Below the pieces are notes generated by a model. That model saw only the letters and a list, made by a program, of their open reading frames with translations. It had not been told where the DNA came from and searched no databases. The translations under genes and the position numbers were made by a program. From assembly GCA_946621635.1 (NCBI GenBank), contig CAMOOR010000002.1, positions 33,944 to 97,943 of the forward strand: 64,000 bases of DNA. Direction: 5' to 3'. Position 1 is the stretch's first letter. Every line of letters begins with the position of its first letter. Below are positions 1 through 61,113 of this stretch, one piece after another. This DNA is from an uncultured Bacteroidales bacterium. GTDB taxonomy: Bacteria; Bacteroidota; Bacteroidia; Bacteroidales; P3.

Positions 1-145
1 CCCGCCGGTCCAACCGGGCAAAAAACAGGTGCCCCGCACCCCGATTCCGGCCGGAACCAAACTGCCACCCAAACGTTAATTTAACTTAAATCTCACTTTA
101 CCCCACCCTACTCAACTCTCACAAAATCAAGAGAGAAGAAGGATG

Positions 146-178
146 GGAGATAGAGAGGAGTAAGAGGGGAGTAAGAGG
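146..178 (+). repeat. 11-bp phased purine-rich array (GGAGTAAGAGG x2 plus one degenerate unit); right arm of a long imperfect palindrome centred near 130
   Basis: Direct reading gives ggagtaagagg at 157-167 and 168-178. A pyrimidine-rich, partly complementary arm lies at ~95-120. Confidence 0.5.
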
Positions 179-303
179 GGGTGCCTTAAAGGTCTGAAAA
201 TCAAGGGGTATTTTTAGGGTTATGTTAAGTAGAAAATTGGACGCCGCAGGGGCGGAGGACGGCGGGGCTCGGGGCGAAAATTTGTCCCGATTGGAAACAA
301 AAT

Positions 304-5171: not shown

Positions 5172-5199
5172 TAGGTTATGGGTTATAGGTTATAGTTTG
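5172..5199 (+). repeat. Heptamer tandem repeat (TAGGTTA-like x4) immediately after the infB stop codon
   Basis: Reading gives taggtta tgggtta taggtta tagtttg, starting one nt after the TGA at 5169-5171. Confidence 0.85.
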
Positions 5200-6089: not shown

Positions 6090-6164
6090 GCTCCTGTAGT
6101 TCAATGGATAGAATAGAGGTTTCCTAAACCTTTGATCAGGGTTCGATTCCCTGCGGGAGTACCA
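6090..6164 (+). tRNA. tRNA-Arg (anticodon CCT), CCA encoded
   Basis: A manual cloverleaf fits. The acceptor pairs GCTCCTG with CGGGAGT, including two G-U pairs. The T arm is CAGGG-TTCGATT-CCCTG. The anticodon stem is GAGGT/ACCTT with loop TTCCTAA, giving anticodon CCT. Discriminator A and CCA are at 6161-6164. Confidence 0.9.
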
Positions 6165-7795: not shown

Positions 7796-7878
7796 TTTCC
7801 GTTTATTTGGCTCCATCGAAGATATTCCTGCGCGTAGGTGCTCAAAAACATTTACACATTAACACATTGGATGCGCGT

Positions 7879-7922
7879 CTACTCCTTTTACTCCCCTTTT
7901 GCTCCCCTTCGTACCCCCTTCT
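7879..7922 (-). repeat. 11-bp phased pyrimidine-rich array (reverse complement GGAGTAAAAGG-like)
   Basis: Four successive 11-mers read ctactcctttt / actcccctttt / gctccccttcg / tacccccttct. Confidence 0.5.
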
Positions 7923-7999
7923 GGGTAACTCTGCTGTTACTATATAATAACTCCGCTGTAAATCCGTTACACCCATAGTCATCATCAACAACACACACT

Positions 8000-8871: not shown

Positions 8872-10092
8872 ATGGCGAAACCAACATGTATAGATCTATT
8901 TGCGGGCTGCGGGGGACTCTCTCTCGGCTTGTACCTTGCCGGATGGCAAGGCCTTTTCGCCATTGAAAAAAACGCATTCCCATTTGAGACGCTAAAGCAC
9001 AACCTTGTTGACAATAAGAAACACTTCGATTGGCCGGACTGGCTGCCGCAAACCAACCACGACATAAACGAGGTGCTGGAGAAATATCAGGACCAACTGA
9101 AAGCCTTGCGGGGCAAAGTGGATTTGGTGGCTGGTGGGCCTCCGTGCCAAGGGTTTTCTATGGCCGGCAAACGTGTCGAAGACGATGTGCGCAACCAGCT
9201 TGTCTTCTCCTACATAAAGTTCATCGATTTTGTGCGTCCCCGCATGCTCCTCTTCGAGAATGTCAAAGGTTTTACCTATGCATTTGACAAAAAGAATGAC
9301 AGCGGCGCTGAACCCTACTCGCATAAGGTGATTAGAGGATTGCAACAATTGGGATACAATGTCAAACCCCACGTTTTTGACTTCTCCAATTATGGGGTTC
9401 CTCAACGGCGCAAACGTTTCATATTAGTTGGAGTCCAAGATGGGTTAGGTAGCCCTGACAACTTTGAGCAACTGTTGTTGACCCATCGTGATGCCTTCCT
9501 GAAAAGCAAAGGCTTAAAGCCTAATGTCACACTGAAGGAAGCCATATCCGACCTGCTCCGCAGCAACGGTGAACTTCCTACTTCGGACCGCAAAGGCTTC
9601 AATTCCGGAGTATATGGCAATGCCCAGTTGAGCAACTACGGAAAAGCGATGCGCGGAGATTATCCAAAGACACACACCATTCCCGACAGCCACAGTTTTG
9701 CCCATCATACACCCGAAAAGATTGCATTATTCCAACGCCTATTGGCCGAATACCAACCCCGAGGCAAACGCATTGATGGCAAAGCTCGCGAGGCTTGGGG
9801 CATCAAGCAAAGAGGAATAACAGTGTTAGACCCCGATGCCGTTTCACCAACTATAACTGGACAGCCTGACGACTACTTGCATTATTCAGAGCCCCGCATC
9901 ATGACCGTCCGTGAGTGTGCTCGCATTCAATCGTTCCCTGATTGGTACGAGATAAGAGCAAAATACACCACTGGCGGAGATATGCGCAAGTTTGAGGTAC
10001 CACGCTACTCTCAGGTCGGCAATGCCATACCTCCTCTCTTTGCCGAGCAGGCTGGAATTGTTTTAAAGGAGATGTTGCAGAATGAAAGATAA
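8872..10092 (+). CDS. dcm: DNA (cytosine-5)-methyltransferase
   Basis: All canonical m5C-MTase motifs are present: I DLFAGCGGLSLG, IV GGPPCQGFS, VI LLFENVKGF, VIII QRRKRFILVG, IX TVRECARIQSFPDWY, X QVGNAIPPLFA. Confidence 0.93.
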   Translation: MAKPTCIDLFAGCGGLSLGLYLAGWQGLFAIEKNAFPFETLKHNLVDNKKHFDWPDWLPQTNHDINEVLEKYQDQLKALRGKVDLVAGGPPCQGFSMAGKRVEDDVRNQLVFSYIKFIDFVRPRMLLFENVKGFTYAFDKKNDSGAEPYSHKVIRGLQQLGYNVKPHVFDFSNYGVPQRRKRFILVGVQDGLGSPDNFEQLLLTHRDAFLKSKGLKPNVTLKEAISDLLRSNGELPTSDRKGFNSGVYGNAQLSNYGKAMRGDYPKTHTIPDSHSFAHHTPEKIALFQRLLAEYQPRGKRIDGKAREAWGIKQRGITVLDPDAVSPTITGQPDDYLHYSEPRIMTVRECARIQSFPDWYEIRAKYTTGGDMRKFEVPRYSQVGNAIPPLFAEQAGIVLKEMLQNER

Positions 10093-12448
10093 TCTACAAT
10101 TCCGTGTTAGTGCAGAACTGAAAAACATTCTGGGTCGGGATTTGATTACAAGTCCCGACATCGCCATATTGGAGTTGGTCAAGAACTCATACGATGCCCA
10201 TGCTACCAAAGTGGAAATCACTTTTGACGACGACTATATTGCCATAGCTGATAATGGGAAGGGCATGTCGAAAGACGACTTAATCAACAAATGGTTGTTT
10301 GTCGCCTATTCTGCCAAGAGCGATGGAACGGAAGACAAATCCTATCGTAGTAAGTTCAAACGCCATTACGCAGGCGCCAAAGGCATTGGCCGAATGTCCT
10401 GCGATCGATTGGCTCGTTACCTCACCCTTACCACACGAAGTGTGGAAGAAAACAAGACGGAAATTCTCAATGTTGATTGGAATGTTTTCGAGATTGACAA
10501 GCAGAAGGAGTTTGACACAGTCAATATCCCCCATGAAACAAAAGACGACCTCACAAAGTTTCCGTTGGATTCCCCCACTGGAACCATTCTAGAGTTTACA
10601 GGCCTACATCTTCCATGGAGCCGTGAGGACATTAAACGACTTCGAAAGTCTCTGGAAAAGATGATTAATCCATTCTCAGGAACGGATGATGATTTCCAAA
10701 TTGAGATCATTGCTCCAGCAATGAAAGAGGATGATGAGAATACAGAGTCTCCACATGAAGTGGTTAATGGTATTGTCGAAAACACCATTGCCGATGTTCT
10801 AAAGCTAAAAACCACCCAAATAGAAAGTCAGATAAAAAACGGCATGATTTATACTTCTTTAACCGACCGTGGTGTTAAGATGTATGAAATCGAAGAACAT
10901 AACAGTGTTTATTCAAAATTAGCGTCTGCTTCTATTAGTTTATTCTTTCTAAATCGAGCAGCCAAATATAATTTTACTGCAAGAATGGGTATCGAACCGG
11001 TTAACTATGGTAATGTTTTTTTGTTCAGAAACGGTTTTAGAATTTTACCATTCGGTGATTATAACGATGATAGCTGGGGATTGAACCAAAGACAACAACA
11101 AGGTTATAATCGTCGTTTAGGTACCCGTGATTTGTTTGGACGAGTGGATGTTGAAACAGACGATGTGGATTTGATTAAGGAAGTTTCAAGTCGCGATGGA
11201 GGGTTAATCAAGACTGATGCTTCACAACAATTGATGAACTATTTTACAGAGACTCATAAACGGTTGGAACGCTATGTGGTTGGCGTTTTATGGGGAGAAG
11301 GGTTCATAAGAAAAGAGTATTTTGTCAATCAAAGTGCAGCTGAGAGGGCCCGAGAAAAATTAAAAGAAACGGACAAAGACTTGGAATCTGCTGATCACTT
11401 ATATTCAAACATTGGTAGTAAGATTGATTTCATGCAACTTATCCGTTCGCTCGTAAATGACAATTCCATCGATGTAAAGTATTACAATGAGGAATTGGCA
11501 GACATTGTTTCCAATCCTTCAGAGACGGAAGTGATTCAAGCGCAGATGTTTGATGATGTCCGAAAGATGGCCGAAAAAACCAACGATGCTGCTTTATTGG
11601 ACAAGATAGCCGACTTCGAGCGTCACATGGATGAACTACGCTGCCAGAAAGAGGATGCTGAACGCAAAGAAAAAGAAGAAAGAAAAGCGAAAGAACTAGC
11701 GGAACGAAAAGCAAAAGAGGAGGAAGAGAAACGCAAGAAAGTCGAAATAGAGCTTAAACAGCGAACAAAACAAAACCTATTTCTGCAATCTGTCGGGAGT
11801 CTTGACACCGACCGTATATTAAAATACCACCACGATATACGCATTCATGCAGCAACTATACATAACACGATTGGCCAGATTTTAAGAAAAGCGAATCAGG
11901 GTTCATTGTCAACAGAGGATACTATCAAGATGATTGAACGTATCTCCCGCGCTAATGACAAGATAACCTCTATCGCCCAATTTGCCACCAAAGCGAACTA
12001 CAGCATCAATGCAGACACAATCAATGCAGACATTGTAAATTACATCGATGAATATATCAACAATGTACTGCCGGAGTTCTATGGAGATATTCAATTGCAT
12101 TGTAGTAATAAATCCTGCACAAAGGTCATTGCTTTCTCTCCATTGGAAGCAAGTATATTCATAGACAATCTTGTATCAAATACAGTTAAGGCAAATGCCA
12201 AGCATTTTGACGTGGTTTTCGAAAAGGACAATGATGCTGTATGTATGACCATCACGGATGATGGCGACGGCCTATCGCCAGATATTGCCGACCCGAATAG
12301 CATTCTGGAGAAAGGTTACACAACAACCAATGGTTCCGGATTAGGCCTCTATAATGTGGCCTCATTTGTCAAGACGGTTATGCATGGCTCTGTTTCTGTT
12401 GAAAACAAGCTGGGCAAGCAGGGATTTAAACTAAAAATAAAATTCTAA
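10082..12448 (+). CDS. Dual-GHKL protein: N-terminal MORC/MutL-like HATPase_c_3 module, coiled coil, then histidine-kinase core (H-box plus HATPase_c)
   Basis: The N-terminal Bergerat boxes are ELVKNSYDA, DNGKGM and GAKGIGR. A Lys/Glu coiled coil (ERKEKEERKAKELAERKAKEEEEKRKK) follows, then an H-box-like YHHDIRIHAATIHN. A second ATPase has NLVSNTVKA, DDGDGL and GSGLGL. The start codon overlaps the dcm stop by 11 nt. Confidence 0.75.
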   Translation: MKDNLQFRVSAELKNILGRDLITSPDIAILELVKNSYDAHATKVEITFDDDYIAIADNGKGMSKDDLINKWLFVAYSAKSDGTEDKSYRSKFKRHYAGAKGIGRMSCDRLARYLTLTTRSVEENKTEILNVDWNVFEIDKQKEFDTVNIPHETKDDLTKFPLDSPTGTILEFTGLHLPWSREDIKRLRKSLEKMINPFSGTDDDFQIEIIAPAMKEDDENTESPHEVVNGIVENTIADVLKLKTTQIESQIKNGMIYTSLTDRGVKMYEIEEHNSVYSKLASASISLFFLNRAAKYNFTARMGIEPVNYGNVFLFRNGFRILPFGDYNDDSWGLNQRQQQGYNRRLGTRDLFGRVDVETDDVDLIKEVSSRDGGLIKTDASQQLMNYFTETHKRLERYVVGVLWGEGFIRKEYFVNQSAAERAREKLKETDKDLESADHLYSNIGSKIDFMQLIRSLVNDNSIDVKYYNEELADIVSNPSETEVIQAQMFDDVRKMAEKTNDAALLDKIADFERHMDELRCQKEDAERKEKEERKAKELAERKAKEEEEKRKKVEIELKQRTKQNLFLQSVGSLDTDRILKYHHDIRIHAATIHNTIGQILRKANQGSLSTEDTIKMIERISRANDKITSIAQFATKANYSINADTINADIVNYIDEYINNVLPEFYGDIQLHCSNKSCTKVIAFSPLEASIFIDNLVSNTVKANAKHFDVVFEKDNDAVCMTITDDGDGLSPDIADPNSILEKGYTTTNGSGLGLYNVASFVKTVMHGSVSVENKLGKQGFKLKIKF

Positions 12449-12453
12449 CGATT

Positions 12454-13344
12454 ATGAATTTGAAATACCGAATACTGTGGATTGAGAACGAGGAAGATTG
12501 GGTAGAGAGTATTGAAGACCAAATTCAAGAATATCTTGAAGATTTGGGGCTCGTCTATGAGAGAAAACTAATTGCAAAAGAAGAACAAGGTATCAGCTAT
12601 AATGATTATGACTTAATCCTTATGGACTTAAATCTCGCCGACCAACCCAATGGAGCGGAACTTATATCCAAAATACGAGATTTGGGTGTGTATACAGATG
12701 TCGTATTCTATTCAGCGAGTGGTATAGACGAATTAAGAGCGAAAGGAAGGGAGAAAGAGCTTGAGGGTGTATTCTATAGTGGTCGCACTCCAGATACAAC
12801 ATTTGTGAATAGAGTAAAGGCTGTCATTGACGCCACGCTAAAGAAAGTCCAAGACTTGAACAATCTACGCGGACTTGTCATGGCTGAAGTCAGTGAACTT
12901 GATGCAATGATGGATAAAATCATCCCATTGTATTTCAACACGGAGGAAAGAATGGCGTTGTTCCACAAGCATATTACCGCCAACAGAGAGAAAACCCTTC
13001 AGAAGTCATTAAACTGCATCAACAAATGTCAGCTTTCATGGCGAGGCATTGGCATTCAAGAGATAGTCCTTCAGTTAGACTCGTCACAAAAAGCCCGTGC
13101 AATAAAAATCATTATTGACCAAGAGAAACCTGACTTTTACAAAGGCGAGAACTTCTATAAAGAATACGATGCCGCTGTTATCACACCTCGGAATGAACTA
13201 GCGCATTGCAAGAGTGAACTTCGTGATGGCCAAGAGATTCTTTTGACCAGAAAAGGAGACAAGTGCTTCAATGAGGCGTTCTTTAAAGAGATTCGCAAGA
13301 ACATCTTGAAGTATTCAAGTATTTTTAATGAACTTTTGCAATAG
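12454..13344 (+). CDS. Response regulator: REC receiver domain fused to a helical C-terminal domain with a HEPN-type RNxxAH motif
   Basis: The REC part has ILWIENEED and LILMDLN (putative phospho-acceptor D58, codon 12625-12627). The C-terminal part has TPRNELAH (R246..H251, nt 13189-13206), which fits the Rx4-6H HEPN signature. The gene starts 5 nt after the kinase stop codon. Confidence 0.7.
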   Translation: MNLKYRILWIENEEDWVESIEDQIQEYLEDLGLVYERKLIAKEEQGISYNDYDLILMDLNLADQPNGAELISKIRDLGVYTDVVFYSASGIDELRAKGREKELEGVFYSGRTPDTTFVNRVKAVIDATLKKVQDLNNLRGLVMAEVSELDAMMDKIIPLYFNTEERMALFHKHITANREKTLQKSLNCINKCQLSWRGIGIQEIVLQLDSSQKARAIKIIIDQEKPDFYKGENFYKEYDAAVITPRNELAHCKSELRDGQEILLTRKGDKCFNEAFFKEIRKNILKYSSIFNELLQ

Positions 13345-13407
13345 ATGCCGAAAAAGAAATATACATTCATAGACTTATTCGCAGGCGGCGGAGAGTTTTC
13401 GGGGTGA
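13345..13407 (+). pseudogene. 20-codon remnant of a second C5-DNA-methyltransferase (motif I only)
   Basis: The ATG directly abuts the upstream stop codon. The translation MPKKKYTFIDLFAGGGEFSG* is a textbook m5C-MTase N-terminus with motif I (FxGxG), truncated by TGA. Confidence 0.6.
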
Positions 13408-13449
13408 ATTCTATCGAGGATAAATCCCACCACCAATAATAAAGTAAAT

Positions 13450-14226
13450 ATGGTGAACAAACAAAAAAAATGGACCAGAGAAGAATTGATATTGGCACTG
13501 AGTGTGTACTTTCAGCTTCCTTTTGGACGACTAAACCACACCACGCCAGAGGTAAAAGAGCTGGCAAAAATATTAGGGCGTTCGGATAATTCTGCTGCTT
13601 TGCGTTTGTCTAATTTTGCTGCTTGCGACCCATACATTATCAATTCTGGACGTACGGGTATGCGTGCAGGGATTCCTGTGTGCAAACCCATTTGGGATGA
13701 ATTTGCCGATGACAAAGAACGACTGTTTAACGAGGCACAACATATCAAAGCTACACTACTCCAAAAGACAGTCGAGGAGACATTGAACATTTCCAAACAA
13801 GATCTTGAAGGGAAAGAGAGGTCTGTTGTCATCAAGCAACACGTTAACCAATCCGTGTTTCGTACGATGATACTCTTTAACTATGAAAATTGTTGTGCTA
13901 TTACTGGCATCAACATCCCAGAACTACTTGTTGCTGGTCATATTATACCCTGGGCAAACAGCACTCCTCAGCAAAAGTTAAATCCGGAAAATGGAATATG
14001 TTTATCCCCACTTTACGACAAGGCTTTTGATAAAGGCTTCATTACCATATCTCCGGATGATTACACTGTCCGTATTTCTTCCGCATTGCGTGAATACGAG
14101 AAAAAGGAATATTTCAACAAGCACTTTGGCAGTATCAATGGTCAAAGAATAAATATGCCTATAGAACACAAACCAAACCGAGACTATTTAGCTTACCATC
14201 GCGATAATATTTTCTTGGGGGATTAA
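13450..14226 (+). CDS. HNH endonuclease (HNH_2 / COG3440-type putative restriction enzyme)
   Basis: The C-terminal half has CCAITGINIPELLVAGHIIPW...NPENGICLSPLYDKAFDKGFITI, typical of the HNH_2 family. The N-terminal WTREELILALSVY region is common in stand-alone restriction-type HNH proteins. Confidence 0.85.
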   Translation: MVNKQKKWTREELILALSVYFQLPFGRLNHTTPEVKELAKILGRSDNSAALRLSNFAACDPYIINSGRTGMRAGIPVCKPIWDEFADDKERLFNEAQHIKATLLQKTVEETLNISKQDLEGKERSVVIKQHVNQSVFRTMILFNYENCCAITGINIPELLVAGHIIPWANSTPQQKLNPENGICLSPLYDKAFDKGFITISPDDYTVRISSALREYEKKEYFNKHFGSINGQRINMPIEHKPNRDYLAYHRDNIFLGD

Positions 14227-14280
14227 ATAGTTGACGAAATAAAACCCTTCAGTGTTTGCATCACAAACATTAGATAAACT

Positions 14281-15360
14281 ATGGACATTCACTCATTGTA
14301 TGAAAGAATATGTAATATGCTTCCGATTACTTGGTTGGATGGGGAAGTATTGTCATTTCAAAAGAAATTGTCAAGTCAATTAGACCAATATTGGGGTTTA
14401 ATTAAAGAAATTGATATAAAAGATAGACCTGCCGAATGGGATGATATCAAAATTACTATCAAATCTTTGAACAAGAAAATAGTAGAAATTATCAACGACG
14501 AATATAAAGGATATCATTCGACTGCATTTATGAGCCTTCGAACATTACTTGAAGACAATCGTCCCAATACAAATTTGCATATTAAAGATAGTCTTATTTT
14601 TTACGATTTACCTGAAATGACAAAGACATATCGAATTCGAATGTTTGACTTTGATAAGCGTAAAGGTGTCACATTCAAAGATATGTTCCATATTCCATTT
14701 GACAAGCGAGGAATCGTAAAAACGGAGCGCTTTAGTATGCCAGGATATCCATGTCTTTATCTTGGTAAAAGTGCATACGGATGTTGGGAGGAAATGGGTC
14801 AACCTTCCGTGGATAATTGCATGGTATCTTGCCTTGAAAATCAGGAAACGGTCAAATTAATTGACCTTAGAATACCCACTGAAGCAGCTTTTAGGGATAG
14901 GCTTAAGGATTATTTGATTATCCTGCCTATAATCATTTCGTGTATGGTGCAAGTTAAGAACCGTACAGATGTTTTCAAGGCAGAATACCTTATTCCCCAA
15001 CTTATCATAGAATGGCTTATTTATCACAACAAGTCTGAACACGACAAAATACTAGGTGTTACTTATACATCTTCTGCCAAGAATAATTCTTTCGGTTTTC
15101 CTCCGTATGTTTTTGATAACTATGCGATACCTGCTGTAATGGGCAAAAAAGACTCAAAGTATAGTTCAACACTGTGTCGAATCTTCAGAATTACAAATCC
15201 CACATGCGATGAATTTGAATCAATCGTTAGAGGTCCATACGCCAGAATTGCATATAGCGATCCTGATCCCCAAGAGGCAGCATACAAAAATTCATTATTT
15301 GGTGCATTGGAGAGTGCATTAAGTGAACGAGAAAGATTTCCATTTAATCATATTATATAG
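14281..15360 (+). CDS. RES-domain protein (NAD+-targeting toxin family) with a ~100-aa N-terminal extension
   Basis: The R-E-S signature is present: TERFSMPGYPCLYLGKSAYGCWEEMG (R and E), then ILGVTYTSSAKNN (S). Confidence 0.7.
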   Translation: MDIHSLYERICNMLPITWLDGEVLSFQKKLSSQLDQYWGLIKEIDIKDRPAEWDDIKITIKSLNKKIVEIINDEYKGYHSTAFMSLRTLLEDNRPNTNLHIKDSLIFYDLPEMTKTYRIRMFDFDKRKGVTFKDMFHIPFDKRGIVKTERFSMPGYPCLYLGKSAYGCWEEMGQPSVDNCMVSCLENQETVKLIDLRIPTEAAFRDRLKDYLIILPIIISCMVQVKNRTDVFKAEYLIPQLIIEWLIYHNKSEHDKILGVTYTSSAKNNSFGFPPYVFDNYAIPAVMGKKDSKYSSTLCRIFRITNPTCDEFESIVRGPYARIAYSDPDPQEAAYKNSLFGALESALSERERFPFNHII

Positions 15361-15538
15361 CCGGTCTCTGAGTGGTTAAAACTATTTTACTCATAGATTA
15401 TAATGTCATATTCAAATGCAATCATTCCCATCAGGTTGACCAGGGAGACAGACCATCCGAAAGAATACCTCTGCATCACCGGAAATCTTTTCTATATCGG
15501 TTTACAAAAAAATACGGCAAGATGTCACTTATAGAGGA

Positions 15539-15895
15539 ATGAATTTAGAAAACTATCGCGAATATTGCCTGTCGATGGGCGAGGATGCTGGCTCCATTGT
15601 GCTACCGCCAAAGGTATTGAATGCCCGTTATGTGATGTTGCACAATGGCACAAACGGTACCTTGTTCAAACTAAAAGGTGCAGGGCCTCGTTTCATATCG
15701 AAAGAAACCCTGCAAAAGAAAGGCTTCGAAACCCTCGGTCATGACTACTACCTAGTTAATACTTTTGATACCGCACAATCAAAAGACTACAACAACCTTT
15801 CCTCTCATGGCCGGGGGAAACAGACTACCACTCCATGGTTTGCCACCTGGGAAGAATTGATGAATAATGATAATCGCTATGGAAAACAATCATAA
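15539..15895 (+). CDS. Hypothetical protein; the first ~16 aa resemble an MmcQ/YjbR-family N-terminus
   Basis: The 118-aa ORF begins MNLENYREYCLSMGED, like the start of YjbR/MmcQ. I do not recognise the rest. Confidence 0.4.
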   Translation: MNLENYREYCLSMGEDAGSIVLPPKVLNARYVMLHNGTNGTLFKLKGAGPRFISKETLQKKGFETLGHDYYLVNTFDTAQSKDYNNLSSHGRGKQTTTPWFATWEELMNNDNRYGKQS

Positions 15896-16088
15896 CAAAC
15901 CAACCCTTTTCACCCTGCAGGAGATGCTGTCGCCGTTAGATGCCATCAAGGAGATATTTGAGGAAGGACGTGGATGGTGGAACTCGTGGGAGCTGGCGCA
16001 ATGGTTGGAATATGTACCCCAAAAGGCAAAAATGGGAGCATATCATTCCCAATATGTACCCGAAAAGGCGTTTTGGGGTACATATTAA
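15867..16088 (+). CDS. Small hypothetical protein (weak call)
   Basis: 73-aa ORF overlapping the previous ORF. Its 3' end is built from an inverted/direct repeat. Confidence 0.25.
   Translation: MIIAMENNHNKPTLFTLQEMLSPLDAIKEIFEEGRGWWNSWELAQWLEYVPQKAKMGAYHSQYVPEKAFWGTY
16010..16085. repeat. 15-bp perfect inverted repeat (ATATGTACCCCAAAA / TTTTGGGGTACATAT) separated by 46 nt, upstream of rhuM
   Basis: The arms lie at 16010-16024 and 16071-16085. The loop contains a direct near-copy (aatatgtacccgaaaagg). Confidence 0.8.
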
Positions 16089-19116: not shown

Positions 19117-19662
19117 ATGACCGACACCATGACATCCGAGCAGCGGCACCGCTGCATGTCGCACATACGCAGCAAGGCCACGAAGCCGGAACTGCTGGTG
19201 CGGCAGTGGCTATGGGGGCATGGGTATCGATACAGATTGAACGTAAAGAGTGTGCCGGGCAAGCCGGACATCGTGCTGCGGCCCTACCGCACGGCGATAT
19301 TCGTCAACGGGTGCTTCTGGCACGGACACGGTGTGCGGCCGGAGGCCGCACAAATTGAAAATTCAAAATTGAAAATTGAAAGCTCCCCCTGCTGCAAGAT
19401 TCCACAGACCAACCGCAGCTTCTGGCTGGAGAAGATACGCCGCAACCAGGAGCGCGACCAGCGCAACTACGCCCTGCTGCAGGACAACGGCTGGCAGGTC
19501 ATCGTCGTCTGGGAGTGCCAACTGAAGCCCGACAAGATAGAACACACCATGCGTGAGGTGGAGCTGATGTTAAATAGCAACATGCTTTCGATTTACAAGC
19601 ATCATCCAGTCCCATACTCCACAGAGGAAGAGATGCCTATGCCGAAGGCGGCGGAAAACTGA
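19117..19662 (+). CDS. vsr: Very-short-patch repair endonuclease, copy 2 (full N-terminus, with a 17-codon in-frame insertion)
   Basis: MTDTMTSEQRHRCMSHIRSKATKPE...CFWHGH-[insert]-SSPCCKIPQTNRSFWLEKIRRNQERD...VVWECQL. Confidence 0.85.
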   Translation: MTDTMTSEQRHRCMSHIRSKATKPELLVRQWLWGHGYRYRLNVKSVPGKPDIVLRPYRTAIFVNGCFWHGHGVRPEAAQIENSKLKIESSPCCKIPQTNRSFWLEKIRRNQERDQRNYALLQDNGWQVIVVWECQLKPDKIEHTMREVELMLNSNMLSIYKHHPVPYSTEEEMPMPKAAEN

Positions 19663-21372: not shown

Positions 21373-24309
21373 ATGACAGAAAAACAACAAACCGCAGCCG
21401 CCAAAGCTTTTTCCAGACGCTGGTCGGGCCATGGATATGAAAAAGGGGAGACGCAGTCCTTTTGGTCGGACCTACTGCGCACTGTCTTCGACAGCGAGAA
21501 GGCGGGCGTCACAATTGAATATGAAAAACCTATAAAGAAAGGCAAAGGCGAGACACAATACATCGACGCCTACATTCCTGCCACAAAGGTGCTCATCGAG
21601 CAAAAGGGTGCAGGTATCGAATTGTCACGGCACCAGCAACGGAAAAACCAAATTCCTATCACACCCTACGGCCAGGCAAAACAATATGCCGATAACCTAC
21701 CATACTCGGAAAAACCCAGATGGATCATCACTTGCAACTTCCGAGAAATATGGGTATACGACATGGACATGGTCCTTCCGCAGCCCGAGAAGATAATGCT
21801 TTCTGACCTCGGAACCGAGTGGCATCGCTTGCGGTTTCTAACTGATACAGGACGGGGCATGCAATCAAAAGAGGTCCGGGTATCCATCAAGGCCGGCCAG
21901 CTCGTGGGCGAAATCTATGATGCTCTGCTTAAACAGTACGCCATACCCTCCGACGAGTCACTTCGCTGGCTCAACATCCTGTGTGTACGTCTGGTTTTCT
22001 GCCTCTACGCCGAGGATGCAGGCATCTTCCGCCGCGACCTTTTCCACGACTACCTCGCTAACTGCGCCACCTCCGACCTACGCGGTGCCATCATCGACCT
22101 ATTCAAGACCCTCAACACTCCCGAACATCAGCGTAGCCCCTATCTGAATCAGAACCTTGCCGCTTTCCCCTATACCAATGGAGGTCTCTTCGCCGAAGAG
22201 ATAGAAGTGCCTCAATTTACCGACGAAATTAAATCCCTGCTCATCAAACACGCCAGCGACGATTTCGATTGGAGCGAGATTTCTCCCACTATTTTCGGCG
22301 CGGTGTTCGAGAGCACGCTCAATCCCGACACTCGTCGCAGCGGGGGCATGCATTATACAAGCATAGAAAACATCCACAAAGTCATCGACCCCCTGTTTTT
22401 AGACAGTCTAAGGAACGATTTAAACAAAGCCTTGTCCGCCAAGGAGAAACGGTCGGACAAACTGAGAGCATTCCAGCAACGACTTGCTTCGCTGACCTTC
22501 CTCGACCCCGCATGTGGTAGCGGCAATTTCCTTACGGAAACCTATCTTTCACTTCGACGACTTGAAAACCAAGCCATCCGCGCTCTCTACGGAGAAGGAA
22601 TCCTAGGTTCTGTGCATAATCCCGTAAAGGTCAGCATAGGACAGTTTTTCGGTATTGAAATCAATGATTTTGCTGTCACCGTAGCTACCACAGCCCTTTG
22701 GATTAGCGAAGCACAGATGCTCGCAGAAACCGAGAAGATTGTACAACACGACATCGATTTTCTGCCACTGAAAAGCTACACAAACATTCACGAAGGCAAC
22801 GCCCTGCGCATGGATTGGGATACCCTCTCACCATCCATGCCGGACAATCTCATCTACACCGACAAACTCAATATCTACCAGACCAACGACGACGAGACCA
22901 CCATCATGGTCTCCGAACCTCCCTCTCCTTATGGCAGTGTGCACAAAGAGTTAAACGTCATTGCCCACCAGGTGGAATACCGTAACATCAACGAACTACA
23001 TCGTCATCCCGTCGCCCCTATCGCCTACGACTACATCATGGGCAATCCCCCGTTCGTCGGCGCCCGCATGATGAGTGAGGGACAGAAAAGCGATGTGGTT
23101 TCCGTGTTTGGCCCACACTGGAAGAACGTGGGCAACCTCGACTATGTCTGTTGCTGGTACAAGAAAGCCTCCGACCTGATGCTCGCCAACCCGGGCACTC
23201 GCACAGCACTGGTATCGACCAACAGCATCACACAGGGCGAGCAAGTGGCTAATCTCTGGCAGCCCCTGCTGCAGCATGGTCTGCATATAGATTTTGCATA
23301 TCGCACCTTCCGCTGGGACAGCGAATCGTCGCTCAAGGCCCATGTGCATTGTGTCATCGTTGGATTCAGCCACTCCAACACTCGTCCTCGAATAATCTTT
23401 GATGGCGACAGCCGTACCGAAGCCTCCAACATCAATGCCTACCTGATTGACGCACCCAACATCTACGTCGGCAGCCGTCAACATCCACTGTGCGACGTGC
23501 CTCCCCTGCTTACCGGAAGTCAGCGCATCGACAACGACCTCTTCATGTTCACCGACAAGGAGAAAGATGCCTTTATAAAAAGGGAGCCGCTGTCGTCAAA
23601 GTTTTTCCATCGCTGGTATGGTGCTGACGAGTTTATCAATAACCGTCCAAGATGGGTGCTATATCTCGGAAACGCCACTCCGGCCGAACTTCATGCCATG
23701 CCCCACTGCAGAAAAATACTACAGCAGGTGAAAGAATACCGCATGGCCAGCGGCAGAAAACAAACCCAGAAAGCCGCTCTCACGCCGAACAAGTTCGGGC
23801 TGGAAGTGATTCCCAAGGGGAACTACATGATTGTCCCTGTCGTTTCATCCGAACGACGCTTGTATGTGCCCATGGGATTCATGTCGCCCGAAGTCATGTG
23901 CAGCAACCAGGTAAACCTCATCCCCGACGCTACCCTCTACCATTTCGGCGTGCTCGAAAGCAGCGTGCACATGGCATGGATGCGGGCGGTGTGTGGCAGA
24001 CTGGAAATGCGTTATCGCTATTCCAAGGACATTGTCTACAACAACTTCCCCTGGCCGGAGCCAACGGAAGAACAGAAAGCCCGGATCGGACAGACCGCGC
24101 AGGCCATCCTCGATGCCCGCGCCCTCTACCCCGACAGCTCCCTGGCCGCTCTCTACGACGACCTGACCATGCCATCCGAACTGCGCAAGGCACACCAGGA
24201 TAACGACTGCGCCGTGATGCAAACCTATGGCTTCGACCCCAAATCCACCTCCGAAAGCCAGTGCATTGCAACCTTGTTCAAACTCTATCAAGAACACTCC
24301 AATGGCTGA
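21373..24309 (+). CDS. MmeI-family Type IIL restriction-modification enzyme (fused endonuclease plus N6-adenine methyltransferase plus specificity domain)
   Basis: It resembles MmeI along its whole length as I remember that sequence. The nuclease motif is YIDAY...VLIEQKG (D..ExK). Other matches are LVFCLYAEDAGIF, LAAFPYTNGGLF, MTase motif I FLDPACGSGNFL, motif IV GNPPFVG, STNSITQGEQV and LYDDLTMPSELRKAH. Confidence 0.9.
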   Translation: MTEKQQTAAAKAFSRRWSGHGYEKGETQSFWSDLLRTVFDSEKAGVTIEYEKPIKKGKGETQYIDAYIPATKVLIEQKGAGIELSRHQQRKNQIPITPYGQAKQYADNLPYSEKPRWIITCNFREIWVYDMDMVLPQPEKIMLSDLGTEWHRLRFLTDTGRGMQSKEVRVSIKAGQLVGEIYDALLKQYAIPSDESLRWLNILCVRLVFCLYAEDAGIFRRDLFHDYLANCATSDLRGAIIDLFKTLNTPEHQRSPYLNQNLAAFPYTNGGLFAEEIEVPQFTDEIKSLLIKHASDDFDWSEISPTIFGAVFESTLNPDTRRSGGMHYTSIENIHKVIDPLFLDSLRNDLNKALSAKEKRSDKLRAFQQRLASLTFLDPACGSGNFLTETYLSLRRLENQAIRALYGEGILGSVHNPVKVSIGQFFGIEINDFAVTVATTALWISEAQMLAETEKIVQHDIDFLPLKSYTNIHEGNALRMDWDTLSPSMPDNLIYTDKLNIYQTNDDETTIMVSEPPSPYGSVHKELNVIAHQVEYRNINELHRHPVAPIAYDYIMGNPPFVGARMMSEGQKSDVVSVFGPHWKNVGNLDYVCCWYKKASDLMLANPGTRTALVSTNSITQGEQVANLWQPLLQHGLHIDFAYRTFRWDSESSLKAHVHCVIVGFSHSNTRPRIIFDGDSRTEASNINAYLIDAPNIYVGSRQHPLCDVPPLLTGSQRIDNDLFMFTDKEKDAFIKREPLSSKFFHRWYGADEFINNRPRWVLYLGNATPAELHAMPHCRKILQQVKEYRMASGRKQTQKAALTPNKFGLEVIPKGNYMIVPVVSSERRLYVPMGFMSPEVMCSNQVNLIPDATLYHFGVLESSVHMAWMRAVCGRLEMRYRYSKDIVYNNFPWPEPTEEQKARIGQTAQAILDARALYPDSSLAALYDDLTMPSELRKAHQDNDCAVMQTYGFDPKSTSESQCIATLFKLYQEHSNG

Positions 24310-24377
24310 CCGCCAACGCTGCGGGAACGAGAAGCCATTTTGTCAAACCAACAGACCAACGAAGGGCCTACCAATGC

Positions 24378-24448
24378 CCTACCAACTCCTACGATGGTAG
24401 GAGTTGGTAAGGAGTTGGTAAGGAGTTGATAAGGGGATGGTAAGGGGG
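24378..24448 (+). repeat. Palindrome plus 11-bp GGTAAGG array element, copy A
   Basis: ccctaccaactcctac-gatg-gtaggagttggtaagg forms a 13-bp stem. It is followed by ggtaaggagtt / ggtaaggagtt / gataaggggat / ggtaaggggg. The left flank also carries complementary 11-mers (ctaccaatgcc, ctaccaactcc). Confidence 0.85.
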
Positions 24449-24613
24449 TTATGGCTCTAAAAGCCATGTTTTTGCGGGGTTGGAGGCGGGAAACGAGGCG
24501 TTTGGGGCGAAAAACGGGTTTTTCAGGGAGGTGTTTTTGTCAAATCGGAAGGGGAAGGCGGGGGCCGGAGGAGGGGTCCGGGGAGGGGTTCGGATGGCGA
24601 AGTGAAGAAAAAT

Positions 24614-30332: not shown

Positions 30333-30374
30333 CAGTGTTAAGTGTTTAGTGTTAAGTGTTCAGTGTTAAGTTTT
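30333..30374. repeat. Heptamer tandem repeat (NAGTGTT x6) making up the M16-VWA intergenic spacer
   Basis: cagtgtt aagtgtt tagtgtt aagtgtt cagtgtt aagtttt lies between the VWA start (30330) and the M16 stop (30382). Confidence 0.9.
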
Positions 30375-31738: not shown

Positions 31739-31803
31739 GGGCCTGAACTTTGTTAAAGAACGTTAAAACGCCCGTTTTCGGACTTTTCATCTTTTTATCA
31801 AAA

Positions 31804-31860
31804 CCTACCATGGTAGGAGTTGATAAGGAGTTGGTAAGGACTTGGTAAGGATTTGGTAAG
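31804..31860 (+). repeat. Palindrome plus 11-bp GGTAAGG array element, copy B
   Basis: cctaccatggtagg is followed by agttgataagg agttggtaagg acttggtaagg atttggtaag. A perfect 14-bp inverted repeat brackets it (gaactttgttaaag at 31745-31758 and ctttaacaaagttc at 31863-31876). Confidence 0.85.
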
Positions 31861-31864
31861 TGCT

Positions 31865-33409
31865 TTAACAAAGTTCGACCCCTGTCGATTCGGGGTTTGA
31901 CTCCGGTCGGCGGAAGGCCATGAACCAGGTGCAAAAGAGGATGCCCGCCAGGGAGTCGAGGGTGTTTTCGGCGAGGAACGAGACGAGGACCGCAACGGTC
32001 AGGGCCACAAAGAGCTGCCCCTGACGGCGGAGGCGCGGCGCGGCACGCAGCCACACCAGCACCATCAGCACGAAGAGCGGCAGGCCGAACATGGCGATGA
32101 GGGTCAGGTATTCGTTGTGGGGCATGAGGTCGGACCCTTGGAGAGGCGATGCCGAGCGCCGGAATTCAGCCTCCATGGCCTCGCCCAAGTCGCCGGTGCC
32201 GACGCCCGTCCAGGGGTGGCGCCCGATGATGTGGAGGGCGGTCCGCCAAAGCTCGAGGCGCTGGAGCATCGAGAAACCCTCGACAGCACGGTAGCAGCGG
32301 TAGTTCTCCAGCTCGAAAAACATCACATGGAGCATGCGCTGCGGCAGCGGGGCATGCTCGTAGACAGGATTGGGGACACCGCGGGCCACCTCGGCCACCT
32401 GCTCGTCGCTGAGGGCCGCCAGGCCGACACTGTCCTTGGGCAGGCCGAGGGCGTTGAGGTAGCGCACCAGGGAGGCTTCGACATTGTAGCCCGAGGCGGT
32501 GAGGCTATCGAGCGGCACACGGCTGCGCTTCGGCCATTGCTGCGCCAGCTCCTCGTGGCAAAGGTAGTTGTTCACGTAGTTGCCGCTCTCCACCATGCCG
32601 TCGTGCAGGTGCAGATAGGGGTTGCCCGAGGGGGTGTAGAGAGCAACGGGCTGGAGGGCAATGGGTTGTAGGGTATGGTAGGCGCGGTATTGCACAACCA
32701 CATAGGCTGCCGTTCCGCCTACCACCGCCAGCCACACCGCCAGCCACAGCCAGCAGCGGCGCAGGCCGAGCACCACCACCAGCGACACCACTCCGAAGAC
32801 GACGAAAGCCGTGTAGGACCTCAGCAGCAGCAGGAAGCCCATCATCCACACCATCAGGGCCGCCAAGGCCACTTTGCGCCAGAGGGGCGTACCGCCGTCT
32901 GCGTGGCGCAACATGTTGACGCAAAGGAAGACAACCATACAGCAGTTGAGGGCGAAGCGGATGTGGGAAATGAAAGGTACCATCTGGCGGTAGGGCAGGT
33001 CGGGAATGGCGAGGTAGCGGACCAGGCCAATGACGGTGACCACGAAGACCGTGCCCATGTAGAGGGTGAGGATGGTGCTGCGGGCGCGTCCGGCAGGGGG
33101 ACGGGTGGTGAGCACCACAAGGGGCACCGCGAGCCACGGCAGGAGACGTTCCACCACGTGGAATCCCGCTGGCAGATTGCTGGTCCACAACAGTCCGACC
33201 GCATGCAGCAGGAAGAAGAACGCCACGGCATGCAGCAGACGGCTCTGGCGGGCCATCGTCCACTTCTCGCTCCATCGTCCCTCGAGCAGCCAGTTGGCCA
33301 GCAGCAGCACCCACACAACGTTGCTCATGCCGATGCTTGTCACCATGCAGCCCCCCAAGAGGGTGAGCAGCACGAGGTAGATGCGTCTATGGACCTTGGC
33401 CGGGAACAA
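31865..33409 (-). CDS. O-antigen ligase (Wzy_C) family membrane protein
   Basis: Multi-pass membrane protein with PHNEYLTLIAMFGLPLF, typical of the Wzy_C/O-antigen ligase loop region. Confidence 0.75.
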   Translation of the reverse strand: MFPAKVHRRIYLVLLTLLGGCMVTSIGMSNVVWVLLLANWLLEGRWSEKWTMARQSRLLHAVAFFFLLHAVGLLWTSNLPAGFHVVERLLPWLAVPLVVLTTRPPAGRARSTILTLYMGTVFVVTVIGLVRYLAIPDLPYRQMVPFISHIRFALNCCMVVFLCVNMLRHADGGTPLWRKVALAALMVWMMGFLLLLRSYTAFVVFGVVSLVVVLGLRRCWLWLAVWLAVVGGTAAYVVVQYRAYHTLQPIALQPVALYTPSGNPYLHLHDGMVESGNYVNNYLCHEELAQQWPKRSRVPLDSLTASGYNVEASLVRYLNALGLPKDSVGLAALSDEQVAEVARGVPNPVYEHAPLPQRMLHVMFFELENYRCYRAVEGFSMLQRLELWRTALHIIGRHPWTGVGTGDLGEAMEAEFRRSASPLQGSDLMPHNEYLTLIAMFGLPLFVLMVLVWLRAAPRLRRQGQLFVALTVAVLVSFLAENTLDSLAGILFCTWFMAFRRPESNPESTGVELC

Positions 33410-33442: not shown

Positions 33443-33490
33443 CCTTTCACTCCCTCTCACTTCGCTTCACTCCCCTTTCACTCCCTTACC
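33443..33490 (-). repeat. 11-bp phased array (reverse complement GGAGTGAAAGG-like) spanning the S41 peptidase stop codon
   Basis: The units read cctttcactcc ctctcacttcg cttcactcccc tttcactccct. The last codons of the peptidase (GKGVKGE*) are encoded by the array. Confidence 0.6.
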
Positions 33491-37416: not shown

Positions 37417-37543
37417 CTTTTCAGGGTAGGTTTTTATGTTAGCAAAAGCACCCTTGCTAACGCAAAAAAAGGCCTTTTATTGTGCACTTTGGGCAAAGAT
37501 GTCCGAAAAAGCTGATTCCCAGCCTTCCACAGCCATATCATCT

Positions 37544-37601
37544 CCTACCGTGGTAGGAGTTGGTAAGGACTTGGTAAGGACTTGGTAAGGGGATGGTAAG
37601 G
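37544..37601 (+). repeat. Palindrome plus 11-bp GGTAAGG array element, copy C
   Basis: cctaccgtggtagg is followed by agttggtaagg acttggtaagg acttggtaagg ggatggtaagg. Confidence 0.85.
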
Positions 37602-37704
37602 ACTTTTTGCCAAGCGGAACCGTCGGCGCGGGGACGCGCCGGCCCGCGGCATGGCAAAAAGCGGGCATCGGGAAGATTTTTTTATTTATATTAAAATTTA
37701 TTCG

Positions 37705-43205: not shown

Positions 43206-43254
43206 AGTTAAGAGTTAAGAGTTAAGAGTTACGAGTTATGAGTGAAAAGTTAAA
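43206..43254 (+). repeat. Heptamer tandem repeat (AGTTAAG-like x7) filling the PBP1A-rlmN spacer and running into rlmN
   Basis: agttaag agttaag agttaag agttacg agttatg agtgaaa agttaaa. The rlmN ATG (43238) lies inside unit 5. Confidence 0.9.
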
Positions 43255-44275
43255 AGCCAATCTCCTGGGCATGACCCTGCCGCAGCTGCAGACGCTGTGC
43301 GCCGACCTCGGATTTCCCCGCTTCACGGCCAAGCAGCTCTGCGACTGGCTGTACAAGAAGCGCACCGACAGCATCGACGCCATGACCAACCTCTCCCTCG
43401 CCCAGCGCGCCCGCCTCGGCGAGGTGGCCTACATCGGCCGCGACTTCCCCGTCAACTGCCAGGTCTCCCGCGACGGCACCAAGAAATATTTGTTCCGTGT
43501 AGCAACGCAAGCGTCGCCGGCCCACGTCGAAACCGTCTTCATCCCCGACGACGACCGCGCCACCCTCTGCATCTCATGCCAAGTGGGCTGCAAGATGGGC
43601 TGCCGCTTCTGCGTCACCGGGCAGCAGGGATTCCACGGCTCGCTGTCGGCGGGCGACATTCTCAACCAGCTCTTCTCCATCCCCGAGTTCGAGCAGCTCA
43701 CCAACGTTGTCTTCATGGGCATGGGCGAGCCCATGGACAACCTCGACGCCGTCCTGGCCGTCTGCAGCATCCTCACCTCCGACTGGGGCCTGGGCTGGAG
43801 CCCCAAGCGCATCACCGTCTCCTCCGTGGGCATCATCCCCGGCCTGAAGCACTTCATCGAGGAGAGCCAGTGCCACCTCGCCATCAGCCTCCACAACCCC
43901 GTGCCGCAGGAGCGCCTGGCCATCATGCCCGTGCAGAAGGCCTTCCCCCTCAATGAGGTCCTCGCCCTGCTGCGACAGCACGACTGGAGCGGCCAGCGGC
44001 GCCTCTCGTTCGAGTACACCATGTTCCGCGGCCTCAACGACGACCTGGCCCACGCCACACGCCTCGCCGAGGCCCTGCGGGGACTCGACTGCCGCGTCAA
44101 CCTCATCCGCTTCCACTCCTCGCCCGGCACCCCCTACCAGACCTCCACGCCCAGCGCCATCCGCGCCTTCCAGGACTTCCTGAACCGCAACGGCGTTGTC
44201 TGCACCCTCCGCGCCTCGCGTGGCGAGGACATCGACGCCGCCTGCGGACTCCTCGCCGGCCGCGAGGGACGATAG
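43238..44275 (+). CDS. rlmN: 23S rRNA / tRNA (adenine-C2)-methyltransferase RlmN (radical SAM)
   Basis: CQVGCKMGCRFCVTG (CxxxCxxC), GMGEP and the C-terminal DIDAACG. Confidence 0.95.
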   Translation: MSEKLKANLLGMTLPQLQTLCADLGFPRFTAKQLCDWLYKKRTDSIDAMTNLSLAQRARLGEVAYIGRDFPVNCQVSRDGTKKYLFRVATQASPAHVETVFIPDDDRATLCISCQVGCKMGCRFCVTGQQGFHGSLSAGDILNQLFSIPEFEQLTNVVFMGMGEPMDNLDAVLAVCSILTSDWGLGWSPKRITVSSVGIIPGLKHFIEESQCHLAISLHNPVPQERLAIMPVQKAFPLNEVLALLRQHDWSGQRRLSFEYTMFRGLNDDLAHATRLAEALRGLDCRVNLIRFHSSPGTPYQTSTPSAIRAFQDFLNRNGVVCTLRASRGEDIDAACGLLAGREGR

Positions 44276-45270: not shown

Positions 45271-45409
45271 TAAACCAGAATCTTATCGCCGCTAAAAAAA
45301 ACTCGTCGAAAAAAAACGTATATATATAAAATAAGGCCTTTTTAGCGGAAACGAAAAATTTAACACTTTTTTAACACATCTCCCCCACCCAATCATCCCC
45401 CTCCCAACA

Positions 45410-45467
45410 CCTACGATGGTAGGAGTTGGTAAGGAGTTGGTAAGGCGATGGTAGGGACTTGGTAAGG
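45410..45467 (+). repeat. Palindrome plus 11-bp GGTAAGG array element, copy D
   Basis: cctacgatggtagg is followed by agttggtaagg agttggtaagg cgatggtaggg acttggtaagg. The left flank is a degenerate complementary arm. Confidence 0.85.
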
Positions 45468-55383: not shown

Positions 55384-55433
55384 CCATTTTGCATTTTTAC
55401 CTCTGTCAAAACCCTGTTTTCGCCCTATCATCT

Positions 55434-55492
55434 CCTACCATGGTAGGAGTTGGTAAGGAGTTGATAAGGACTTGGTAAGGGGATGGTAAGGG
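55434..55492 (+). repeat. Palindrome plus 11-bp GGTAAGG array element, copy E
   Basis: cctaccatggtagg is followed by agttggtaagg agttgataagg acttggtaagg ggatggtaaggg. Confidence 0.85.
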
Positions 55493-61079: not shown

Positions 61080-61113
61080 TGTAGCTGTCTTTTTGTAGGA
61101 GTGTGGGGGGGGG

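Follow-up and report, generated by a model that had tools for sequence, protein, structure and literature searches.

A small dispersed DNA repeat with a central dyad and helically phased 11-bp units, probably a foldback element, in uncultured rumen Bacteroidales

What kind of sequence recurs, always in the same orientation, at five intergenic sites of a 64,000-nt stretch of contig CAMOOR010000002.1 from an uncultured Bacteroidales bacterium (the whole stretch is hereafter called the window)? Each site, named copy A to E, carries a palindromic core followed by an array of 11-bp units. A preliminary description of this DNA had considered a phased protein-binding array, a structured RNA, a bidirectional terminator and a strand-polarised chromosomal signal. 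We have compared the window copies with those in metagenome-assembled genomes (MAGs) and metagenome contigs, and we consider it probable, with appreciable doubt, that the family is a lineage-restricted, small, non-coding dispersed DNA repeat of a rumen Bacteroidales clade, that is, a foldback element similar to MITEs (miniature inverted-repeat transposable elements) and repetitive extragenic palindromes (REPs).

The 25-nt core CCTACNNNGGTAGGAGTTGRTAAGG had five exact matches in the window, all on the + strand, against 0.00 expected from 100 shuffles. The - strand gave three matches at two mismatches, and their source was the degenerate left arm. Tandem Repeats Finder called an array at every copy (period 11, 4.6-5.1 copies, consensus TGGTAAGGAGT) and at no other window site, and an nhmmer profile built from all copies detected no further member in the window. 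The preliminary description had placed the five copies correctly and all on the + strand, and its view of a dispersed intergenic family with a conserved dyad, a variable loop and helically phased 11-bp units was confirmed. The phasing of the array stood as well, and only the unit number of three to four was slightly low.

Copy A (24367..24445, +) has the left arm CCTACCAATGCCCTACCAACT, which amounts to 2.5 mirrored units. Its core (CCTAC at 24388-24392, loop GATG, GTAGG at 24397-24401) is followed by four GGTAAGG/GATAAGG units to 24445, and it lies between an MmeI gene (+) ending at 24309 and lepA (+) starting at 24672. Copy B (31745..31876, +) is a full element of 132 bp of the subtype that we call Type 1, with an AT-rich left arm, four 11-bp units and a perfect 14-bp outer inverted repeat (GAACTTTGTTAAAG at 31745-31758 and CTTTAACAAAGTTC at 31863-31876) enclosing the core (CCTAC at 31804-31808, loop CATG, GTAGG at 31813-31817). 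It stands between the genes of an M16 peptidase (-) and a Wzy_C protein (-). The Wzy_C-like open reading frame (ORF; 31865-33409, -) has its stop codon, at 31865-31867, and its last codons within the right outer repeat, and copy B thus supplies the end of this reading frame. Copy C (37533..37601, +) combines the left arm CCATATCATCT with four GGTAAGG units after its core (CCTAC at 37544-37548, loop CGTG, GTAGG at 37553-37557), and shows a weak, locus-specific outer inverted repeat (37488-37504 and 37600-37614). It occupies the divergent spacer between a Na/H exchanger gene (-) and holB (+).

Copy D (45390..45467, +), with a degenerate left arm and four units, one of them GGTAGGG, has its core at 45410-45423 (CCTAC at 45410-45414, loop GATG, GTAGG at 45419-45423) and lies between a DUF6266 gene (-) and a VanZ/S24 gene (-). 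To its left are two long inverted repeats of sequence unrelated to the family, at 44583-44669 (33 nt, 82% complementarity) and 45161-45259 (45 nt, 80%). Copy E (55422..55491, +) has the left arm GCCCTATCATCT, a core with loop CATG (CCTAC at 55434-55438, GTAGG at 55443-55447) and four units, followed by the right flank TTCACAGTGTTTTAC shared within its subtype; its neighbours encode a 2Fe-2S protein (-) and a TonB-type outer-membrane protein (-). Pfam agreed on the flanking genes, and the gene contexts were as first described. The Shine-Dalgarno-like TAAGGAG remarked on earlier in each unit is not supported as a translation signal, the nearest start codons being 126-227 nt away. Bacteroidetes generally do not depend on Shine-Dalgarno pairing.

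The family extends beyond the window. The window and 56 loci from 11 uncultured rumen Bacteroidales MAGs together gave 64 copies of the exact core (MAG or metagenome loci that carry copies have L-numbers in what follows). A single MAG had 1-12 of these copies, and their flanks were unrelated to one another within a genome. A 19-mer of the right arm was found in at least 120 metagenome contigs, nearly all from the rumen, and the element was absent from the collections of viral contigs, phages and plasmids searched. Literature searches on the 11-mer or on Bacteroidales REP-like repeats yielded no description of this family, the only relevant papers being PMC3733652 and PMC4596501. The family thus seems new to the searchable literature, and it appears restricted to a lineage of rumen Bacteroidales.

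The copies are built around the near-invariant dyad (T)CTCCTAC-N4-GTAGGAG, with three to five phased 11-bp units on one side and a degenerate mirror image on the other. The subtypes have the centre in common and differ in their outer arms. Type 1, to which copy B belongs, measures ~130 bp and has sharp ends (RAACTTT...AGTTY) and a conserved AT-rich left arm, (G/A)AACTTTnnTAAnnnnnGTTAAAA, a motif found in 43 sources. In symmetric copies the left-side units read CCCTACCAAC, and in the lineage of the window the right side has four to five GGTAAGG units and the left arm is short, with the right flank TTCACAGnGTTTTA common to some copies. Other variants use the unit GGTAGGAGTTR, or their centre spans 14-15 nt where the loop otherwise has 4 nt. 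Among the metagenome copies the core varied in its left half (CCTAC, CCCAC or CCGAC) and not in its right half. No orphan 11-mer arrays were found, every array being accompanied by the dyad. Under a strict criterion, the part of the right arm covered by the dyad symmetry had a median length of just 14 nt. Type 1 has inverted outer ends (perfect over 14 bp in copy B), and in most copies the symmetry is only central. The left flanks are degenerate complements of the right arm, so that calling the element a long asymmetric palindrome was fair. We have discarded the broader formula of one palindrome of 130-170 bp as a general description, since at a stringent threshold the symmetry is mostly central.

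Comparison of relatives showed both retention and change. Copies A to E are also kept in the close relative UBA4347 and in several metagenome relatives, with orthologues of copy A in L109, L160 and L165, of copy B in L044 and L166, of copy C at L050:62, of copy D at L050:7666 and in L083, L139, L141 and L176, and of copy E in L040, L081, L130, L131 and L139. Orthologous copies were retained across species upstream of guaA in four MAGs, and at a locus with short-chain dehydrogenase/reductase and extracytoplasmic function (ECF) sigma factor genes in three. The differences between orthologues were of several kinds. Copy E and its L040 counterpart differ in the loop (CATG vs. CGTG) and have identical arrays; copy D differs in unit content between the window and UBA4347, through a unit indel and a substitution; and in copy B divergence is much greater in the inner left arm than in the right one. 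Both orientations of the centre were found (the 14-nt centre in L074 vs. L092; also CGTG vs. CACG), which indicates that the arms work at the DNA level as inverted repeats between which the enclosed segment is flipped.

Presence and absence also varied among relatives. A copy adjoins the Fe-hydrogenase gene in RGIG4993 and RUG429, and none does so in the window or UBA4347; we rejected this locus as an empty-site comparison, the spacers being too diverged to define boundaries. At 61095..61113 the window has a sixth copy reduced to a relic in the opposite orientation, a decayed short arm (GTAGGAGTGTGGGGGGGGG) that adjoins the stop codon of the gene at 61114-62688 (-). The close relatives L131 and L128 have a full element at this site, consisting of a pyrimidine array, a 15-nt centre and GTAGGAGTTGGTAGGAGGA, and TGTA microhomology at the junction indicates that the window sequence is a deletion relic. 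Upstream of rimP, UBA4347 (L022) carries a genuine Type 1 copy, inverted relative to copies A to E. The window sequence at that place (95..180, +) has a similar architecture, with the palindrome CTCTCAC-AAAATCAA-GAGAG (N8 loop) followed by GAGTAAGAGGG 11-mers. It had been taken, at ~95-178, for a divergent relative; the family nhmmer profile did not detect it, and its sequence is unrelated, so that it is an analogue.

We have then examined where the copies lie with respect to genes, which were called with a self-trained full-codon model and checked against Pfam (the model under-calls the low-GC island described below and the DUF6266 and VanZ genes). The MAG set comprised 23 divergent, 12 tandem-antisense, 6 tandem-sense and 7 convergent contexts, and 75 de-duplicated metagenome loci gave 19, 22, 11 and 11, respectively. 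With the remaining spacers of these loci, weighted by their bp, as the reference, divergent spacers were the most enriched class (44 observed vs. ~25 expected, range 23-26), convergent ones were enriched as well (26 vs. ~19), and tandem spacers were depleted (65 vs. ~90). About one third of all copies lay in divergent spacers, and in the inspected divergent cases, upstream of guaA, the element was upstream of both TAnnTTTG core promoters. By eye, no Bacteroidetes TAnnTTTG/-33 TTTG or ECF-type promoter motif stood in convincing register within the element. The enrichment in both divergent and convergent spacers places the elements between transcription units of either kind, which fits tolerated insertion between operons and not a dedicated terminator.

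Indeed, that the element would act as a bidirectional intrinsic terminator, as had been suggested, appears extremely unlikely. A gene end precedes four of the five window copies, and the core hairpin of copy B, followed by TTTTGATAAA on the - strand, was called terminator-like. However, this was the only T-tail among the five copies, and it was confined to that strand. Copy A is followed, outside the repeat, by a canonical hairpin of its own that resembles an intrinsic terminator (24450..24473, +; TATGGCTCTAAAAGCCATG plus TTTTT), which shows that the repeat itself does not terminate the gene upstream. Moreover, no transcript ends in the divergent spacers that hold copy C and about a third of the family, the AT-poor stem is mismatched, and most copies have no flanking A/T runs.

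A further reading was a structured non-coding RNA or a cis-acting RNA hairpin (for example an mRNA stabiliser or a 5' or 3' untranslated-region element). Every copy forms a hairpin with a negative z-score (-1.1 to -7.0; modest for window copies C to E), and in Type 1 G.U pairs favour folding of the purine-arm strand by 4-20 kcal/mol. Against this, symmetric copies fold better on the other strand, and folding both strands of 60 copies gave no better strand for the family as a whole (36 vs. 23, Wilcoxon P=0.09). We therefore abandoned G.U asymmetry as a guide to the functional strand, its answer depending on the subtype. With the Rfam 15 covariance models at the gathering score, the only match in the whole window was a tRNA at 6090-6161, and the repeat thus matched no known RNA family. 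The orientation of the copies relative to genes was weakly biased (34 antisense vs. 17 sense in pooled tandem contexts, the copies not being independent), and the inspected divergent copies lie upstream of both promoters.

The preliminary description had read conserved arms around a variable loop as selection on structure. At mirrored positions 17-30, none of them fixed by a search pattern, 108 distinct copies showed 48.6% Watson-Crick pairing, vs. 50.6% in column shuffles. Compensated double changes were at or below the level expected from independence, and one-sided changes were frequent. At mirrored positions the common non-Watson-Crick states were T.G and C.A, each one transition away from C.G, with no enrichment of the doubly changed T.A state. 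Several mismatches were shared by descent, with C.A at position 14 in 81% of copies and U.U at position 8 in 44%. Such a pattern is the mark of descent from master copies followed by uncompensated decay, and not of selection on a stem. This signature makes a structured RNA very unlikely, and the covariance check did not sustain selection on structure as first proposed.

The common orientation of the window copies raised the possibility of a chromosomal signal of the KOPS, Chi or Ter kind, polarised by strand and oriented with replication. The five window copies share one orientation whatever the gene direction, and on most multi-copy MAG contigs the copies also agree in orientation. We used a skew test at third codon positions, which separates coding from strand effects, and in the MAG set the purine arm lay on the strand that is G-richer at these positions (r_GC=+0.053, permutation P=0.005). 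The association was not replicated in the 75 independent metagenome loci (r_GC=+0.008, P=0.61). Furthermore, copies on opposite strands of one contig were found in L012, L131 and L081/L128, and L131 and L081/L128, which are close relatives of the window, have besides the orthologue of copy E a further copy on the opposite strand at a distance of 5.7 kb, which is also the distance between copy E and the opposite-oriented relic of the window. The inverted rimP copy of UBA4347 is a further exception. GC skew followed gene direction at the scale of the window and not the replichore, and the skew of 8-kb loci was rejected as a replichore proxy for the same dependence on gene direction. The unreplicated association and the opposite-strand neighbours leave no reliable replication polarity, and the polarised signal that had been envisaged is highly implausible.

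An array bound by a host protein is the main rival to the foldback repeat. In units 3 and 4, which no search pattern fixed, positions 1-4, 6, 10 and 11 carried 0.8-1.8 bits, position 7 0.75-0.92, and positions 5, 8 and 9 0.2-0.45, giving a phased motif TTGRTAnG plus about three free positions per 11-bp unit. Together with the invariant half-sites and the free 4-nt spacer, this motif resembles the trace expected from a protein that reads DNA once per helical turn, although subfamily descent could mimic the same positional pattern. The copies would then be host arrays, dispersed operators or nucleation sites for an oligomerising DNA-binding protein that acts on neighbouring promoters or on local chromosome architecture. 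Such a role is supported by the period of 11 at every copy, the enrichment in divergent spacers with the inspected cases upstream of both core promoters, the retention of the copy upstream of guaA in four species, arms that are more conserved than their flanks, and local clustering. On the other hand, the flanking genes are functionally unrelated and make no coherent regulon, convergent spacers are enriched too, and sharp-ended subtype arms, deletion relics and presence/absence differences resemble a repeat family. No candidate protein was linked to the copies, the only recurring neighbour within 2.5 kb across the 56 MAG loci and the window being an ECF sigma factor. ECF sigma factors are common in Bacteroidetes. 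Of the protein-binding array first suggested, the periodicity and the TTGRTAnG conservation fit, and neither a coherent regulon nor a linked cognate gene was found around the copies; we regard it as unlikely. A more elaborate version is less likely still. In it, the dyad and the mirrored TTGRTAnG units would be nucleation sites for an oligomerising DNA-binding protein of the clade (for example of the ribbon-helix-helix or winged-helix type), dispersed by a mobile repeat and then retained, and the co-oriented 31-kb cluster of the window might delimit a domain of the chromosome or divergent promoters that are regulated together.

The reading of the family as a MITE/REP-like foldback repeat is supported by window copies far above chance, by many copies with unrelated flanks and by presence/absence among relatives at the Fe-hydrogenase, rimP and 61.1-kb sites. 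Further support comes from the shared sharp ends and the subtypes, the constant company of array and dyad, the inverted centres and differing unit numbers, the lack of compensatory covariation, the location between operons and the Bacteroidales precedent discussed below. A trans-acting enzyme, not encoded beside the copies, would have spread the element in the past, and the invariant dyad with its phased motif would be the DNA feature that a protein recognises, either as a duplex or as a snapped-back hairpin. The present copies would be mostly tolerated passengers, slowly decaying, and not working parts of the neighbouring genes. The comparisons show that they are vertically inherited, that 11-bp units are gained or lost, the centre is inverted or an arm is deleted, and that decay proceeds mainly by single uncompensated transitions.

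Several results weigh against this reading. No direct repeat indicative of a target-site duplication (TSD) flanks the Type 1 ends, and we found no clean empty site, the one comparison of a filled site with a relic showing only the TGTA microhomology, which fits deletion. Neither a transposase nor another partner was present in the 2.5-kb surroundings, and no parent element with the same ends was found near the copies or in phages, plasmids or viral contigs. Conservation peaks at the centre and is lowest at the ends, the reverse of a classical MITE that depends on terminal inverted repeats (TIRs), and the copy number per MAG is low. In UBA4347, the reference genome closest to the window, five of the eight exact-core copies lie in the region syntenic with the window, which is unexpected under random dispersal. 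At orthologous sites the arms are 67-74% identical, vs. 48-60% for the flanking spacer, a modest excess that is confounded by the repetitive composition of the arms and by ascertainment through the core; with the position-specific motif, this arm conservation could reflect a host function. It is the lack of a TSD and of a parent, the central conservation peak and the clustering that led us to keep the host array as the main rival, and movement in the manner of REPs as a sub-variant of the foldback repeat.

In that sub-variant the element would be REP/REPIN-like and moved as a single-stranded hairpin by a Y1 transposase, either a REP-associated tyrosine transposase (RAYT) or one of the IS200/IS605 type, with the GTAG/CTAC of the dyad as the cleavage or recognition tetranucleotide. 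These tetranucleotides do form the invariant dyad and recur in GGTAGG units, and the missing TSD is expected for the class. Replication-coupled single-strand transposition predicts an orientation bias with strand skew, as in IS608, and the first data set showed such a bias with third-position GC skew; this association was the one that did not replicate. Several features do not fit. GTAG lies inside the stem and is not a terminal tag, the central stem is often mismatched (CCCAC or CCGAC vs. GTAGG), the copies are few, and no Y1 transposase was near any of them in the 2.5-kb survey of the MAG loci and the window. The bias toward divergent spacers also differs from REPs, which lie mostly in unidirectional or convergent spacers, and GTAG REPs were not reported in Bacteroidetes in the survey of these elements (PMC3733652). 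We consider this route quite improbable.

The largest superfamily of REPs is characterised by GTAG, which RAYT cuts in single-stranded DNA; REPs are stem-loops of 20-40 bp that bear GTAG as a tag at the end, and their copies usually run into the hundreds, are found chiefly downstream of genes and have a link to RAYT genes (PMC3733652). Our family is like REPs, REPINs and bacterial interspersed mosaic elements (BIMEs) in being made of short extragenic palindromes with GTAG, G.T stem pairs and a variable loop, in occurring as inverted pairs without TSD, and in that copies can persist at orthologous sites. Unlike REPs, it is 70-130 bp long, has GTAG/CTAC as the stem, few copies, phased 11-mers, a preference for divergent spacers and no RAYT near the copies.

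Of the elements described so far, BrickBuilt of Porphyromonas gingivalis is the closest in kind, and it gives a Bacteroidales precedent for a MITE with an internal tandem repeat: it is an intergenic MITE with a minisatellite of 23-nt units, IS5-type TIRs (GAGACCTTTGCA) that match resident ISPg elements, and measured promoter activity (PMC4596501). Both families have a Bacteroidales host and are small, non-coding, only intergenic and devoid of an internal transposase (BrickBuilt at ~10-20 copies per genome), and both set a spacerless array of short tandem repeats between a non-repeat "leader" and "tail" with small inverted-repeat ends. In contrast to the single direct array of BrickBuilt, the 11-bp units of our family are mirrored around an invariant dyad and the centre is the most conserved part; neither a parent insertion sequence nor promoter activity is known for it. 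ERIC/IRU, Correia (NEMIS), RUP and BOX elements are likewise imperfect palindromes or modular intergenic repeats, of 100-150 bp, with subtypes and internal indels, and the variable number of boxB units in BOX recalls the variable units here. However, they occur in Proteobacteria or Firmicutes and are unrelated in sequence, TIRs are defined in Correia and RUP, as are TSDs (TA or other), and none of the four classes has an 11-bp helically phased array abutting a central dyad.

Arrays phased by the helical turn are best known from protein-binding sites, such as the ten 11-bp iterons bound by ParR in parC of plasmid R1, the heptads of the omega protein and the 7+4 direct repeats of OmpR/PhoB. These iteron-type arrays occupy one or few loci, beside the gene for the binding protein or in a defined regulon. 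The family has the two or more helically phased direct repeats with a conserved recognition core by which iterons are defined, and it further shares with them a core of 6-8 bp, free spacer positions, direct and inverted units and a frequent location between divergent promoters. It differs in that its array belongs to a dispersed, multi-copy repeat whose flanks depend on the subtype and to which no protein is linked. By architectural analogy only, it also resembles eukaryotic foldback (FB) transposons, with long inverted arms of short tandem subrepeats, and the dispersed hr regions of baculoviruses, arrays of repeats centred on an imperfect palindrome that is bound by the dimeric protein IE-1; FB and hr differ from it in scale and belong to another domain of life.

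For Bacteroidota the catalogue of small dispersed repeats is poor, and for the uncultured rumen lineages that dominate fibre digestion there is none. The family can serve as a lineage marker, is a possible source of assembly breaks in rumen MAGs, and displays how a palindrome changes (units gained and lost, the centre inverted, an arm deleted) across natural genomes that can be compared. An invariant centre with variable ends, the reverse of a classical MITE, points either to a mode of mobilisation not yet characterised or to protein-binding sites that are dispersed. The latter, if true, would offer a handle on gene regulation or chromosome organisation in organisms without genetics.

Some observations concern the surroundings of the copies and related arrays. 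The MmeI-family type IIL restriction-modification gene directly left of copy A is complete (21373-24309, all five MmeI Pfam domains). The CCGAC variant of the core half-site creates TCCGAC, an MmeI site (TCCRAC), which is probably a coincidence. Four copies lie no more than some dozens of bases from the ends of the analysed stretches (L003 7975-7999, L012 7956-7980, L032 22-46 and L007 106-130). Those of L032 and L007 may mark true contig ends, which would suggest that the repeat breaks short-read MAG assemblies. Two pyrimidine-rich 10-11-bp arrays of the window (7871-7925 and 33443-33490), whose reverse complement reads GGAGTAAAAGG or GGAGTGAAAGG, have units related to those of the family, no adjoining palindrome, and were not detected by the family profile. 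L090, from a human gut metagenome, and L127 contain long heptamer arrays of a related unit (TAGGAGT/TAGGAGG, period 7, no palindrome) that end in GGTAGGAGTTGGTAAGGAG, and these may be an independent microsatellite that arose from the same motif.

The window holds two further peculiarities of gene content and composition. RlmN (43238-44275, +) and a 502-aa ORF on the - strand with an N-terminal DUF6266 match (43574-45082) overlap by ~700 nt, and the latter is probably extended through a shadow frame of rlmN or frameshifted. Positions 10000-16000 form an island of low GC (0.39-0.46 vs. 0.56-0.63 elsewhere), in which genes score poorly with the codon model trained on the remainder of the window, suggestive of horizontally acquired DNA. 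Finally, the window contains perfect or near-perfect tandem arrays of heptamers (3.6-6.9 copies) at 2167-2192, 5171-5195, 19352-19381, 30334-30371, 43206-43253 and 60732-60760, with the units TTTCAAT, ATAGGTT, AAATTGA, AGTGTTA, AGTTAAG and TTTCCAC, respectively. Several of them lie exactly in short spacers between co-directional genes, for instance between nusA and infB and between RlmN and the gene before it, and they recall the short tandemly repeated repetitive (STRR) sequences of cyanobacteria, though the host is a member of the Bacteroidales.

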